From a virus: a stretch of 26,641 nt of DNA. The notes below the pieces were generated by a model. The model had not been told where the DNA came from and did no database searches. It saw nothing but the letters and a program-made list of their open reading frames with translations. Shown here one piece after another: positions 17,972 through 26,641 of this stretch. A program made the translations under genes and the position numbers. The stretch lies in the IMG/VR virus record IMGVR_UViG_3300037067_021160; one strand, given 5' to 3'. Numbering within the stretch: the first letter of the stretch is position 1; every line of letters begins with the position of its first letter.

Positions 17972-18280
17972 TTATCCATGCCTAATTTGCAGTCTGTTTG
18001 GTAAATTTTGAAGCTCTTTGATTTTTTCATCTCTTTTAGCTTCTAATTCGCCTTTCGATATCTTATTCCTCGAAAATGTAACAGTATCTTCAATCGAGTC
18101 GTACTGATTTATCAAATGCTGTAGATAAGCTATCTGTCCTCGCAACGTTGCTGATTGCTGCTCATACATAAGATCTCCGAGGCGCTTATCTTCTAATTTT
18201 TCCCTCTCACGATATTCTTTATCTTGCTGTGCCCGCTTATTTTTACTTTCTTCCCAAGGATATACTTCTTCATCACTCAT
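17972..18280 (-). CDS. hypothetical coiled-coil protein (102 aa)
   Basis: Charged, heptad-like composition. Intact ORF. Confidence 0.45.
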   Translation of the reverse strand: MSDEEVYPWEESKNKRAQQDKEYREREKLEDKRLGDLMYEQQSATLRGQIAYLQHLINQYDSIEDTVTFSRNKISKGELEAKRDEKIKELQNLPNRLQIRHG

Positions 18281-18282
18281 AA

Positions 18283-18630
18283 TTAATCCAAAAGTTTAGA
18301 TGTTAACTCTATATTTTTTATACGTAAAGACCTAATTTCTTCCATGGTTACTTTAAACCAATGGTCTATAATATACAAATCTATGTGGGAAAAGTCAAGC
18401 CCACTTTCTATAAAACATTCGGTAACTTTATCTATTATCTGTTTTTGATATTTTATTACATCAAGTAGAGGGCCGTTTTTAATAGCAAGAATTTGATTTT
18501 GTTTCACTAATTCATCTATTTGTTCTTTTAAATGTTCTGTATTTTTATGTAACTGAAGATTAACACCCTTTAAAACTTTAATAGTATCTTCGGGCGAAAC
18601 TTGAGTTTGTTTTTCTAATTCTTGATACAT
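18283..18630 (-). CDS. hypothetical protein (115 aa)
   Basis: Intact ORF separated by 2 nt from the downstream gene. Confidence 0.45.
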   Translation of the reverse strand: MYQELEKQTQVSPEDTIKVLKGVNLQLHKNTEHLKEQIDELVKQNQILAIKNGPLLDVIKYQKQIIDKVTECFIESGLDFSHIDLYIIDHWFKVTMEEIRSLRIKNIELTSKLLD

Positions 18631-18642
18631 TATTTTATTTTG

Positions 18643-18671
18643 TTTAAAAAAAGCGGGCGTAACTGCCCGCT
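18643..18671 (-). terminator. rho-independent terminator (aagcgggc/gcccgctt stem plus U7)
   Basis: 8-bp GC stem with a 6-nt loop. It is followed on the minus strand by TTTTTTT. Confidence 0.5.
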
Positions 18672-18676
18672 TAGGA

Positions 18677-18811
18677 TTATAGGTGCGCCCTTTTAACTCG
18701 AAGACGTCTTCTCCACTTCAAATCATCCATCCAGACGTAAAGCCTAATTAAGGCTAGTCCAAGTAATAGACTCATACCTATGATCCCTTGAGTACAATAC
18801 AAAGATTTCAT
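18677..18811 (-). CDS. possible small membrane protein (44 aa: MKSLYCTQGIIGMSLLLGLALIRLYVWMDDLKWRRRLRVKRAHL)
   Basis: Short ORF between two terminators with one TM helix and a basic tail. Weak RBS. It is below the ORF-track size cutoff and was found by reading the minus strand. Confidence 0.2.
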   Translation of the reverse strand: MKSLYCTQGIIGMSLLLGLALIRLYVWMDDLKWRRRLRVKRAHL

Positions 18812-18846
18812 AGAATTCTCGTTGATAACTTGCTATCTCTTATACC

Positions 18847-18879
18847 TAAAAAAATCTGCGGAGAACAGCCTCCGCAGAT
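18847..18879 (-). terminator. rho-independent terminator (atctgcggag/ctccgcagat stem plus U7) after CDS 18884..19249
   Basis: 10-bp stem with a 6-nt loop. Followed on the minus strand by TTTTTTT, 5 nt after the stop. Confidence 0.6.
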
Positions 18880-18883
18880 AATT

Positions 18884-24203: not shown

Positions 24204-24789
24204 GAAGATCTACATTTGAACATAGCACTACAGGCCGTTGTAAGCAATCTGACGGAATTTCCATTGCTAATCTTGATAGACCCCGCTCATGTTCGTAACT
24301 TGTAATTTTCAATGAATCTTGCAACCATTTCAAATTTGCCCGTAATTCTATAACTTCGTCTTCAAGAATAGCAAGATCGGTTAATGTACGAGCATAATTC
24401 AACGATTGCTCGTTAAGTGTGGCTTTTAGTGTGTCACATTCAACTTCTATTCTTGATACATTTGAAACTACAGAAACCACATAGTCACATTTTGGGCAAA
24501 ACGGCCCAAGTCCGTTGGGTAATGCAGGAATGGCTTCCTTAATACTTCCGGCCCAGTAACAATGCGTACAAACTGCGCTAATGGCTACTGTACCAGAGGT
24601 TGTCGGTTTAAATGAATCGGTTTCTTCCGACTGAACAAGTATTCCGCCGCATTCGGGATCTTTACATATACCATCCCATACCTTTTTACAGACAGGGCAT
24701 GTCCATTTCCCGCTTGGGTTGTTCATACTTAGGTTCTTCTCTAGATTGTTCGTTGTGACGTCTTGGAGGACATCTGACAATTTTACCAT
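24163..24789 (-). CDS. Cys-rich hypothetical protein (multiple CxxC/CPxC pairs; C-terminal coiled coil)
   Basis: CPVCKK...CKDPEC...CTHC...CPKC. aggag lies 13 nt upstream of the start. Confidence 0.5.
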   Translation of the reverse strand: MVKLSDVLQDVTTNNLEKNLSMNNPSGKWTCPVCKKVWDGICKDPECGGILVQSEETDSFKPTTSGTVAISAVCTHCYWAGSIKEAIPALPNGLGPFCPKCDYVVSVVSNVSRIEVECDTLKATLNEQSLNYARTLTDLAILEDEVIELRANLKWLQDSLKITSYEHERGLSRLAMEIPSDCLQRPVVLCSNVDLRALRKRVQEPDNE

Positions 24790-24843
24790 TTGCTTTATAT
24801 TCTCCTGAAGGGCTTCTTCTGGCCGTTCTGCGTTGACGTGCGT

Positions 24844-25077
24844 TCATAGTTGTTCCTGTTTTCTTTTAACTGCTTCACGCAAGATTTGAATTCTTTCAAT
24901 TGAGGTGTCTGTTATTCTACAAGCAACTTGACATGATATTTCACCATCATCATAACCCATAGTAGTGAACCCCTGCTTAATACTTGGGGACATTTGCCAT
25001 GCCCAATCAAAATCGGCAACTTTTGCCTTTTCTTTTTCAAGCTCAATAGCAAGTTCCTCATATGTGGGTTTTGTCAT
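24844..25077 (-). CDS. hypothetical protein (77 aa)
   Basis: Intact ORF. Confidence 0.4.
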   Translation of the reverse strand: MTKPTYEELAIELEKEKAKVADFDWAWQMSPSIKQGFTTMGYDDGEISCQVACRITDTSIERIQILREAVKRKQEQL

Positions 25078-25286
25078 AATGGATTCTCTTCTTCTTTTAC
25101 AAAACCAGCAAAAGTACTACAATTTGAGTTAATAGCGAAGGTAACTCCTTCTCTTTCAAGATACCATAAATCTCCAGTATCGGCTGGAGTATGTTTTACA
25201 AGACAATGACTTGTACGTTTTATAAATCCATTTTTACCCGTTTCTATCATTGTTACCACATCCCCCTCTTCGATAGTCCTACTCAT
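25074..25286 (-). CDS. hypothetical protein (70 aa)
   Basis: 4-nt overlap coupling with the neighbouring gene. Confidence 0.4.
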   Translation of the reverse strand: MSRTIEEGDVVTMIETGKNGFIKRTSHCLVKHTPADTGDLWYLEREGVTFAINSNCSTFAGFVKEEENPL

Positions 25287-25482
25287 ATTTATACCTTTTC
25301 ACCTTAAGTGGTTTACAACCTTCCATGGAATACTTATTAATATAAGATTTGAATTCACGTGATTCCATATCAATTGAACATATGTGAATATGTATACCAT
25401 TAGGAAGTTCTGCATAAGTCGCATTATTCCATTCGGAAGCAATATATTCGTTAGGCCTAAGCCTTGGCTGATCGTTTAGCAT
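25279..25482 (-). CDS. hypothetical protein (67 aa)
   Basis: 8-nt overlap coupling. Confidence 0.4.
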   Translation of the reverse strand: MLNDQPRLRPNEYIASEWNNATYAELPNGIHIHICSIDMESREFKSYINKYSMEGCKPLKVKRYKYE

Positions 25483-25804
25483 TTTTTAGTTTCCTTAAAA
25501 AAACGTTATCTGCTGAGTCTTCATACATTGCTTCTCCTATATAACCACCACAAAGTTCTTGAACACTATCTGGCAAATCAGGAGAAATGTAATGTGTCGC
25601 TTTGTCATAAGCGCATAATTCGTATCCTTTTGGAATTTCTATATCGGGATATGTTTGATCTATTCTAAGTGTAACTTTAGAGCCAGTTCTGATATCAGGA
25701 TCTGTCAATATTCGACGTGTAGAAACGTCTTCAAGAGCAACTGTGATATACCGTATATCATCTTTAATTCCATAACTTTCTATGGTACCTTTAAAAATTT
25801 TCAT
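25457..25804 (-). CDS. hypothetical protein (115 aa)
   Basis: Intact ORF. Confidence 0.45.
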   Translation of the reverse strand: MKIFKGTIESYGIKDDIRYITVALEDVSTRRILTDPDIRTGSKVTLRIDQTYPDIEIPKGYELCAYDKATHYISPDLPDSVQELCGGYIGEAMYEDSADNVFLRKLKNAKRSAKA

Positions 25805-25816
25805 TATTTGTCCTCT

Positions 25817-26215
25817 TTAGCACATTAAATGATTAATTTTAATTTCTCGAATATGATATAAAGGTTCGTCATTAACATCCGGATATTCTTTTTCGTATCC
25901 ATCCCACCCTCGTGTTTCATAATGTACATTCTGTTTCCAATGATTCAACGGAAATCTTCCGAAGGCTTGTGTAAGAGTATCGTATACTCCTACACACGTT
26001 TCTGGTTTTTCATGCGATATTACAACATAGACAGTCGATAATATTCCAGGAGTATCGAACAAATTGGGATTACTTCTTCTATATTCATACACATTACTTA
26101 AAAATTCTGTTATTTTTTGACGTAATTCCTTGAATTTTACATCTTGTACGAATTCAATTAAATCTGCTGTTTGTTGTAATAGAGTAATTTCTTTTTCAAT
26201 AGCTTCTTTATTCAT
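25817..26215 (-). CDS. hypothetical protein (132 aa)
   Basis: Intact ORF. Confidence 0.45.
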   Translation of the reverse strand: MNKEAIEKEITLLQQTADLIEFVQDVKFKELRQKITEFLSNVYEYRRSNPNLFDTPGILSTVYVVISHEKPETCVGVYDTLTQAFGRFPLNHWKQNVHYETRGWDGYEKEYPDVNDEPLYHIREIKINHLMC

Positions 26216-26478
26216 AATATTTTTACTTCAACATCCTTAGATATAATTTTATATCCTAACAACATATTAGTTTCATCGGCCTCTACCCACTCTCTCTCTA
26301 TTGTGTTTGGCCATCGTTCATCTATCTTATAACATTTAGAAAACAGTTCTCTAATTATATTTTCGAGATCCTTATTATAGGGAGGAGTATAATTAATAGA
26401 TTCTCTTGCAGGATCATTACGAAAAAGTTCTAAATCTAACTTGATATTAACTTCTACAAATTCTTTTTCTTTATTCAT
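26212..26478 (-). CDS. hypothetical protein (88 aa)
   Basis: 4-nt overlap with the downstream gene. Confidence 0.45.
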   Translation of the reverse strand: MNKEKEFVEVNIKLDLELFRNDPARESINYTPPYNKDLENIIRELFSKCYKIDERWPNTIEREWVEADETNMLLGYKIISKDVEVKIL

Positions 26479-26641
26479 GTAACATTACTTCTCTATATCG
26501 TTTTTCCAATTCACCCCACATAGCTTCCTCACCTTCTCTGACAAACAAATTAAAAACATCTTGTGCTAATAATCCGGAGCCATCATAATAACATGGGGCA
26601 TTAATAACACTACAATGATCTTGACTTAATTCTTGGCCTTC
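26471..26641 (-). CDS. hypothetical protein; only the C-terminal ~56 aa lie in the window (gene begins past the right edge)
   Basis: Frame open to the window end (...EGEEAMWGELEKRYREVMLHE*). The stop overlaps the next start by 8 nt. Confidence 0.35.
   Translation of the reverse strand, partial: EGQELSQDHCSVINAPCYYDGSGLLAQDVFNLFVREGEEAMWGELEKRYREVMLHE

Follow-up and report, generated by a model that had tools for sequence, protein, structure and literature searches.

In the prochlorosins, one enzyme, a lanthipeptide synthetase, serves many hypervariable precursors. We describe here a viral gene array that invites comparison with this arrangement and with several other described systems. The stretch of DNA analysed (the window) is the 26,641-nucleotide IMG/VR virus record IMGVR_UViG_3300037067_021160, which represents an entire Joint Genome Institute (JGI) metagenome contig with phage-like gene content. 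Between positions 17972 and 26641 it carries a block of small minus-strand genes, six of which, lying consecutively from 21034 to 23656, encode proteins that share a 16-residue N-terminal motif. In related loci, genes for proteins of this kind stand beside a gene for a radical S-adenosylmethionine (SAM) enzyme with a SPASM domain, and the question considered below is whether the motif could be the site at which such an enzyme acts.

The closest described systems are the radical SAM/SPASM maturases of peptides that are synthesized on ribosomes and modified after translation (RiPPs). As in those systems, relatives of the array present a maturase-type enzyme (CxxxCxxC plus SPASM) beside tandem genes whose products combine a conserved N-terminus with a hypervariable remainder. 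In contrast with RiPP precursors, the conserved stretch of the phage proteins covers just 16 residues, counted from Met1, and the products are 100-200 amino acids (aa) long with predicted folded bodies. The phage module also departs from RiPP clusters in being viral, in having neither a RiPP recognition element (RRE) nor a recurrent leader protease or exporter, and in an enzyme that passes no curated maturase model.

Two further pairs of a radical enzyme and its protein substrate deserve attention. As with the anaerobic sulfatase-maturating enzymes (anSME) and AtsB, the target of a radical SAM/SPASM enzyme of about 350-400 aa that lacks an RRE could be a short motif with Ser, close to the N-terminus of full-size proteins. 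Unlike the substrates of anSME, however, the phage proteins lack (C/S)-x-(P/A)-x-R, and anSME models are not among the best NCBIfam matches of the phage enzyme. An anSME-sulfatase pair was rejected, given that the motif reads F-V-S-N-S-S-S-x-S-F and that none of the array proteins holds a Pfam Sulfatase domain. In glycyl radical systems, a strictly conserved Gly occupies an R-V-x-G-[FWY] loop near the C-terminus and the activase has no SPASM domain. This pair was rejected as well: the R-x-G-F of the phage motif is N-terminal (residues 4-7), its Gly6 is replaceable, and the enzyme does have SPASM.

The internal proteins of phage T4 (IPI, IPII and IPIII) provide a parallel of a different kind. 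They too are encoded by clustered small genes in a hyperplastic region of a large phage, with a short conserved N-terminus and divergent, often acidic bodies, and the motif family, like them, occurs in T4-like phages. The motif is nevertheless unrelated to the T4 capsid-targeting sequence, holds no Glu in its 16-residue consensus, and has its genetic linkage with a radical SAM gene instead of head genes.

The N-terminal motif and its protein family

All six array products open with M-K-x-R-x-G-F-[VI]-S-N-S-S-[ST]-[ST]-S-F and diverge thereafter. Two of them match the first 25-27 positions of phrog_7397. In the JGI gene calls, 21467-22036 and 22884-23285 are given starts that lie downstream of the motif and yield products of 138 aa and 113 aa, respectively, and one of the two is named 'excinuclease UvrABC nuclease subunit'; conservation of the motif establishes that the longer starts are correct. 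The product of 21467-22036 has 20 full-length homologues, in which C18, C41, H45 and C140-P-x-C143 are invariant and C21 and C48 nearly so, and the product of 22884-23285 has 12, which share a conserved C-terminal ...T-Y-x-Q-F-I-S-N-D-N-Y.

In AlphaFold2 (AF2) models of two motif proteins, which have predicted local distance difference test (pLDDT) scores of 73 and 80, residues 1 to 10 or 11 are of low confidence and not part of the folded core, as expected for a docking or substrate peptide. No informative structural neighbour was found for either model. The weak best neighbours of the alpha/beta body in BFVD were uncharacterised proteins of Sinorhizobium phage phiM12 and of the giant eukaryotic viruses Catovirus, Clandestinovirus, Cedratvirus and Pithovirus.

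A profile built from the six sequences retrieved 138 metagenomic proteins through a word index, all 138 without a Pfam domain. When a wider family profile was run against 1.84 billion sequences, 25,182 cluster representatives were matched at E <= 1e-3 and 2,714 at E <= 1e-10, each representative standing for a cluster of metagenomic proteins at 50% identity. Nearly all of these representatives are 100-160 aa long, and the match begins at residue 1. Among 261 members that were retrieved, 253 carry the motif at residue 1; M1, R4, F7, S9, N10, S11 and S12 are invariant in this set, and K2, G6, V8, S13, S15 and F16 are near-invariant. Gly6 gives way to Ser in the product of 22884-23285 and in 5 of the 261 members, and to Cys in one. 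Some database proteins (P0127-P0133 and P0148) contain two motif copies, at residue 7 and at about 37-182, which may reflect fused tandem genes or read-through in gene calling.

Motif proteins range from 64 to 279 aa, with a median of 131. Their bodies are acidic, with a median isoelectric point (pI) of 4.6 and a pI below 5 in 77% of cases, as against 20% of control open reading frames (ORFs). These bodies form conserved sub-families, for example a putative zinc-binding type and a predicted alpha/beta type.

The level at which the motif is maintained can be read from its codons. Across 79 motif copies, the AGY and TCN codons of Ser are interchangeable, and the codons of Gly, Arg, Val and Phe vary too. 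Since Ser codons switch between AGY and TCN, selection acts on the motif peptide and not on the DNA, and the same switching excludes a DNA-level element such as a recombination site or a translation signal. Type IV prepilin-like (G|F) and Tat signals were rejected on sequence grounds.

The family is phage-restricted. In IMG/VR, more than 600 of the matches listed fit the motif pattern, and a single array can reach 15 copies within 9 kb. A scan of 185,579 species genomes gave 76 pattern matches, of which 11 were confirmed as loci, all of them on contigs of metagenome-assembled genomes from scattered taxa; these cellular loci are probably binned phage DNA. Neither Pfam nor NCBIfam holds a model for the family, a sequence search of the PDB with the family profile gave no match, and literature searches, both with the motif strings and on radical SAM/SPASM systems of phages, yielded nothing relevant.

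A radical SAM/SPASM enzyme beside the motif genes

Clustering of the ORFs from loci fetched with the motif revealed a single recurrent protein outside the family, present in 13 of 21 loci. This protein is about 350 aa long, carries CxxxCxxC after some 45-70 residues and a Cys-rich C-terminal domain, and matches two Pfam domains, Radical_SAM and SPASM. In NCBIfam it comes closest to models of enzymes that mature peptides or proteins, namely MftC (mycofactocin), PqqE, a tungsten-enzyme maturase, GeoRSP and sactipeptide maturases, all far below cut-off. In one locus (L001, 7301-9382) the enzyme gene is split by an ORF of 275 aa (7855-8682) that looks, by eye, like a homing endonuclease of the HNH/NUMOD type.

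For the reciprocal test, the enzyme was the sole bait. Eighty IMG/VR loci were fetched and 79 scanned with a reach of 10 kb, and a strict motif gene was found in 70 of the 79, or 71 when the variant of locus L085 (see below) is included. Three or more motif genes are present in 56 of these loci. The motif genes lie on the strand of the enzyme in 328 of 330 cases, and 23 of 87 enzyme genes have a motif gene within 20 nucleotides (nt) and 42 within 300 nt. When the ORFs of 98 loci were clustered, the enzyme was recovered in 90 and the motif family in 87, and the next family in only 11. The most frequent of the remaining neighbours are a gene resembling IMPDH/GMP reductase, in 11 loci, and a TnpB/IS605 OrfB gene, in 10, seen for example in L002 (6447-7601) and L007 (5451-6983). 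It follows that the module is conserved across neighbourhoods that are otherwise unrelated and span 26-60% GC. The coupling of the array family to this enzyme in relatives had gone unmentioned in the first-pass annotation of the window, a reading of the DNA alone that preceded this study.

Two weak signs point to a common partner of the motif proteins within each genome. Locus L085 (11396-13407) encodes three paralogs with unrelated bodies, all of which open M-K-x-R-x-S-L-V-S-N-S-S-S (G6S, F7L); such a concerted variant suggests co-evolution with a genome-specific partner. In addition, where the motif varies, members from one genome resemble each other slightly more than members from different genomes do. 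A search for fusions of radical SAM and motif genes (Rosetta-stone proteins) found none.

The same pairing extends to cultured phages. Homologues of the enzyme (45% identity) occur in 172 of 50,697 phage records, all of cultured T4-like phages, including the Slopekviruses KP15, KP27, phiEap-3, Matisse and Miro, the RB43/RB16/Lw1 group, and Cronobacter, Citrobacter and Enterobacter phages, where their annotations read hypothetical protein, radical SAM, SPASM or Fe-S oxidoreductase. A regular-expression scan of the whole phiEap-3 genome returned exactly two motif genes, encoding gp113 (which begins MKIRSGFVSNSSSSSFIIGIG...) and gp118 (which begins MKIRSGFVSNSSSSSFIVRFP...). Both lie 19 kb from the enzyme gene and on its strand. 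Homologues of gp118 were found in 175 records and those of gp113 in 174, with genus counts the same as those of the enzyme. The phiEap-3 gp118 belongs to phrog_7397 (E 8e-115) and the enzyme, gp161 (YP_009607078) in that phage, to phrog_7293 (E 9e-267), both labelled 'unknown function'. These two PHROGs cover T4-like sub-families only, and the six proteins of the window match by the N-terminal motif alone or not at all. Searches of the phage records with the array proteins (tblastn) came back empty, a result probably due to masking of the Ser-rich motif by the low-complexity filter, and only the regular-expression scan revealed the family in cultured phages. In Slopekviruses, the motif genes flank a gene for a 738 aa vWA-domain protein, gp116 (phrog_2426; phiEap-3 locus L108, 17540-21908).

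A proposed modification system and its rivals

Taken together, the data establish a large phage-specific protein family with selection at the peptide level, tandem expansion and reciprocal gene linkage to one enzyme family. From this we infer two things: the motif is where the enzyme acts, and the phage from which the window derives possesses that enzyme. In the proposed mechanism, the block would be an accessory gene region of a very large phage, and a dedicated phage radical SAM/SPASM enzyme (PHROG 7293), assumed to be encoded elsewhere in that genome, would recognise and modify the 16-mer that the motif proteins have in common. One enzyme would install the same radical-derived modification, for which a cross-link, an oxidation to aldehyde or an epimerisation are candidates, on many different small proteins, and the variable bodies of these proteins may serve as host take-over or counter-defence effectors. 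We give about even chances to this reading of the block, that is, an accessory region with a six-paralog array whose 16-mer is modified by an enzyme encoded elsewhere. With a little less confidence, we propose that large phages, including the E. coli phages RB43 and RB16 and the Klebsiella Slopekviruses, may possess a 'tag and modify' system in which one enzyme acts on an invariant N-terminal tag of 16 residues, and in which a genome may encode as many as 15 or more diversified, small and acidic proteins with this tag.

The size of the parent phage is suggested by a neighbouring gene (11858-14359, minus strand). Its 833 aa product resembles the Major Vault Protein (MVP), with shoulder and repeat domains, and shares 42-44% identity, across 97-98% of its length, with ORFs of the uncultured phages LR756500-3 (462 kb, 735 kb). 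To our knowledge, a vault-like protein is unusual in phages. Because of the resemblance to ORFs of such phages, the contig is probably a fragment of a very large phage genome. The view of the block as a phage accessory region, put forward in the first-pass annotation, is supported.

Several observations count against the modification proposal. Gene linkage alone does not prove a relation of enzyme and substrate. The hidden Markov model of the enzyme has no match in any of the six frames of the 26.6 kb window, so that the enzyme beside substrate-type genes is known from relatives only. Eight of the 79 enzyme loci have no motif gene near the enzyme. The enzyme showed no leader-binding domain of the RRE (PqqD-like) type, and no recurrent protease or exporter appeared among the neighbours, where no third family exceeds 11 of 98 loci. 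The motif matches no radical SAM substrate motif known to us, fitting neither those of anSME nor those of sactipeptide, streptide or glycyl radical enzymes. The co-occurrence in cultured phages concerns one related T4-like group and is not phylogenetically independent. Finally, the LR756500-3 phages, the closest relatives identified through the MVP-like protein, are not among the 172 enzyme-bearing records, and no motif gene lies within 20 kb of the MVP gene in LR756500/1.

The main rival explanation holds that the 16-mer is an unmodified targeting or docking tag, for example one that directs proteins into the capsid for injection, as in the T4 internal proteins, or that docks them onto another conserved phage or host machine, the enzyme gene being just a common neighbour within one accessory region. 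The T4 internal proteins do have this architecture, with small genes in tandem whose products share a short N-terminus and diverge in their acidic bodies, and a motif that lies outside the folded core in AF2 models would suit a targeting tag. The body of gp113 also matches phrog_132 at E 6.5e-9, a family whose label, 'head-tail adaptor', is unverified, and gp113 has no Pfam support. However, the motif contains no Glu and no L/I-x-E protease site, and its invariance across loci of 26-60% GC with widely differing neighbourhoods is hard to square with a fast-evolving capsid partner. Furthermore, the one neighbour that recurs encodes a radical SAM enzyme, not a capsid protein, a protease or a portal protein, and the motif genes keep to the strand of that enzyme, with many abutting it. 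A targeting tag thus accounts for the architecture of the arrays but not for their enzyme linkage, and we consider it unlikely on balance.

The first-pass annotation had also raised the possibility of a defence or anti-defence island. As a rival explanation, this would make the block a collection of independently acting small proteins in which the shared N-terminus and the enzyme linkage are mechanistically irrelevant. Small acidic products, dense genes and ORFans (ORFs without homologues) in a large phage fit early counter-defence, and such a role would be compatible with modification of the motif. The searches lent the claim no support: PADLOC-DB 2.0, queried with the ten largest block proteins, gave just two sub-threshold partial matches (E 2e-4 and 2.5e-3), both in one protein and to stretches of 40-65 residues of HamB and AbiEii, and none of the PHROG matches of the block is to an anti-defence family. 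Independent action would also leave unexplained the invariant 16-mer and the linkage seen in 71 of 79 enzyme loci, and as an account of the locus it seems to us rather improbable. A defence or anti-defence role of the variable bodies and of the ORFans is itself neither supported nor excluded.

The polarity of the pair could also be reversed, with the motif proteins as exchangeable adaptor or specificity subunits whose N-terminus plugs into the enzyme and whose bodies recruit targets (proteins, nucleic acids or small molecules). This explanation fits the same linkage data, and the conserved body sub-families, which include zinc-binding ones that could bind nucleic acid, would suit it. However, the invariant polar residues S9, N10, S11 and S12 resemble a site of reaction more than they do a plug, and we know of no precedent for a SPASM enzyme with dozens of exchangeable subunits, which makes the adaptor explanation quite improbable.

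The two-component module of a radical SAM/SPASM enzyme and N-terminally tagged arrays is apparently undescribed. If modification of the motif is confirmed, the family would constitute a previously unrecognised class of post-translationally modified viral effectors comprising more than 10,000 protein clusters, and the motif would provide a common biochemical handle for viral 'dark matter' of about 25,000 clusters at 50% identity. Radical SAM/SPASM maturation would then reach beyond short peptides and sulfatases to whole phage protein families, and enzymology would gain a new substrate motif. The hypothesis is directly testable, given that the enzyme and two tagged proteins are present in the cultured and genetically tractable phages RB43, RB16, KP15, KP27 and phiEap-3, whose records describe all three by no more than a generic domain label or the word 'hypothetical'.

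Composition of the gene block and its phage context

The analysis resolves an anonymous block into the six-gene array and about 16 accompanying small genes, several of them true ORFans (Table 1). Between 17972 and 26478, 22 ORFs that start with ATG or GTG and encode 63-208 aa lie on the minus strand and together cover 95% of the interval; if the partial gene at the window end and two doubtful ORFs are counted, the total is 23-25. The first-pass annotation had spoken of 25 or more genes, nearly all under 210 aa: the size limit and the dense minus-strand arrangement are confirmed, and the count was slightly generous. All 22 genes show the same codon-position bias (GC1 > GC2 > GC3, at 0.46/0.32/0.27) with a purine-rich first position. 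A further rival explanation, in which the block is partly non-coding or mis-called and a large share of its ORFs are spurious, has a negligible probability: two of the ORFs (18808-18966 and 24686-24847) do overlap better genes or a terminator and two large ones are ORFans, but coverage is 95%, codon-position composition is uniform in all 22 genes, the plus strand of the block has no comparable ORF series, eight genes have homologues, and five array genes were recovered by an independent Logan assembly and gene call. The ORF at 18808-18966, with a terminator inside it, was rejected as spurious.

The block is one long minus-strand transcription unit that starts beyond the window end and stops at the terminator at 18879-18854. 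Overlaps of 1-8 nt occur at eight gene junctions, as had been noted earlier: ATGA-type overlaps of 4 nt at 22485, 23282, 25074 and 26212, overlaps of 8 nt at 19242, 25279 and 26471, and a TAATG overlap of 1 nt at 21034. Three further junctions have gaps of 1-2 nt, and four larger overlaps (22-43 nt) may stem from a wrong choice of start. The ORF at 18677-18811, bracketed by two strong terminators, could encode a small membrane protein or form an insulated regulatory spacer.

Table 1. Features of the gene block in the window (coordinates on the whole stretch)
Feature	Position	Strand	Remarks
Two genes of no assigned function (102 aa, 115 aa)	17972-18630	-	Cut off from the rest of the block by terminators
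Second intrinsic terminator	18651-18672	-	8 bp stem, 6 GC, T-run
Doubtful hydrophobic ORF, 44 aa	18677-18811	-	Between two terminators
Intrinsic terminator, end of long transcription unit	18854-18879	-	11 bp stem, 6 GC, T-run
Gene of no assigned function, 121 aa	18884-19249	-	Last gene ahead of the strong terminator
163 aa protein, phrog_13623 (function not assigned)	19242-19733	-	PHROG match
Gene of no assigned function, 81 aa	19691-19936	-	
ORFan, 204 aa	19962-20576	-	Two CxxC pairs, helical C-terminal half
Acidic protein, 131 aa, pI 4.2	20639-21034	-	Start overlaps stop of last array gene by 1 nt
N-motif paralog 1, 143 aa, MKTREGFISNSSSTSF...	21034-21465	-	Identical to JGI protein P0001; no Pfam/PHROG/NCBIfam match
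N-motif paralog 2, 189 aa, MKTRSGWVSNSSSTSF	21467-22036	-	Motif followed by Cys-rich module
N-motif paralog 3, 149 aa, MKVRNGFVSNSSSSSFVIRG...	22039-22488	-	
N-motif paralog 4, 129 aa, MKIRQGFVSNSSTSSF...	22485-22874	-	
N-motif paralog 5, 133 aa, MKIRTSFVSNSSSSSFVIRG	22884-23285	-	C-terminal ISNDNF
N-motif paralog 6, 124 aa, MIIRKGFVSNSSSTSF...	23282-23656	-	
DUF2158-domain protein, 121 aa, pI 4.1	23668-24033	-	Directly upstream of array; Pfam PF09926, phrog_3261
Basic 63 aa protein	24012-24203	-	Two CxxCxGxG motifs (DnaJ-type zinc finger), below Pfam cut-off
ORFan, 208 aa	24163-24789	-	11 Cys (CPVC, CKDPEC, CTHC, CPKC)
Doubtful ORF, 53 aa	24686-24847	-	104 nt overlap with longer gene; probably spurious
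Six small genes without family match (77, 70, 67, 115, 132, 88 aa)	24844-26478	-	Mostly coupled by start/stop overlap
3' end (56 codons) of gene leaving the window	26474-26641	-	Not a radical SAM gene

Cysteine pairs are a second feature of the block that had been singled out. Ten CxxC motifs are present where 1.7 are expected from within-protein shuffles (maximum of 6 in 1000), and all ten fall within the four ORFs named earlier (19962-20576, 21467-22036, 24012-24203 and 24163-24789). The enrichment is therefore real, but the description of many genes as Cys-rich applies to only 4 of 22.

Family searches (Pfam, NCBIfam, PADLOC and PHROGs) gave next to no matches for the block proteins. The verdict 'unannotatable' thus comes close for curated libraries, with the exception of the product of 23668-24033, the only one in the block to clear a Pfam cut-off (DUF2158, 30.7 bits against a cut-off of 22.3, E 2.7e-7). 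PHROG matches, weak or to families of unknown function, were obtained for 19242-19733, 23668-24033, 24012-24203 and two array genes; the product of 20639-21034 found no family match in Pfam, PHROGs, PADLOC or NCBIfam. An FDLHGVL motif in the product of 19242-19733 appears HAD-like, by eye only.

Conservation, whose absence had been named as evidence against the genes, is uneven. Homologues exist for the six array genes, 19242-19733 and 23668-24033; the ORFans 19962-20576 and 24163-24789, the two largest of the Cys-rich ORFs, matched only themselves in a set of 5.8 billion proteins. The block had no megablast match in the 50,697 phage records, and scans of IMG/VR and JGI metagenomes turned up no close relatives of the contig suitable for ratios of non-synonymous to synonymous substitution (dN/dS), the sole other copy (Logan SRR18595300) being 100% identical. 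The expectation that the block would be a hotspot for undescribed functions is borne out by the motif family that it holds.

Outside the block, the window encodes a number of other products, and those with coordinates given here all lie on the minus strand. An ORF of 168 aa (14856-15362), which adjoins the gene for a full DnaJ protein (15310-16389), has CxxxCxxC at residues 7-14 and no Pfam match; it was rejected as a radical SAM enzyme on account of its length. The other genes specify a peptide deformylase (700-1248), a flotillin (Band 7)/NfeD pair (5512-7551), a DUF7873 protein and a Porin_5-like protein (17015-17950), whose N-terminus looks, by eye, like a signal peptide. Two RNA genes complete the set, a tRNA-Met (CAT) at 7977-8051 and a transfer-messenger RNA at 4102-4523 (Rfam, 110 bits) with the long tag peptide ANDTVERAEIIVADFARSLEDVPVAIAA.

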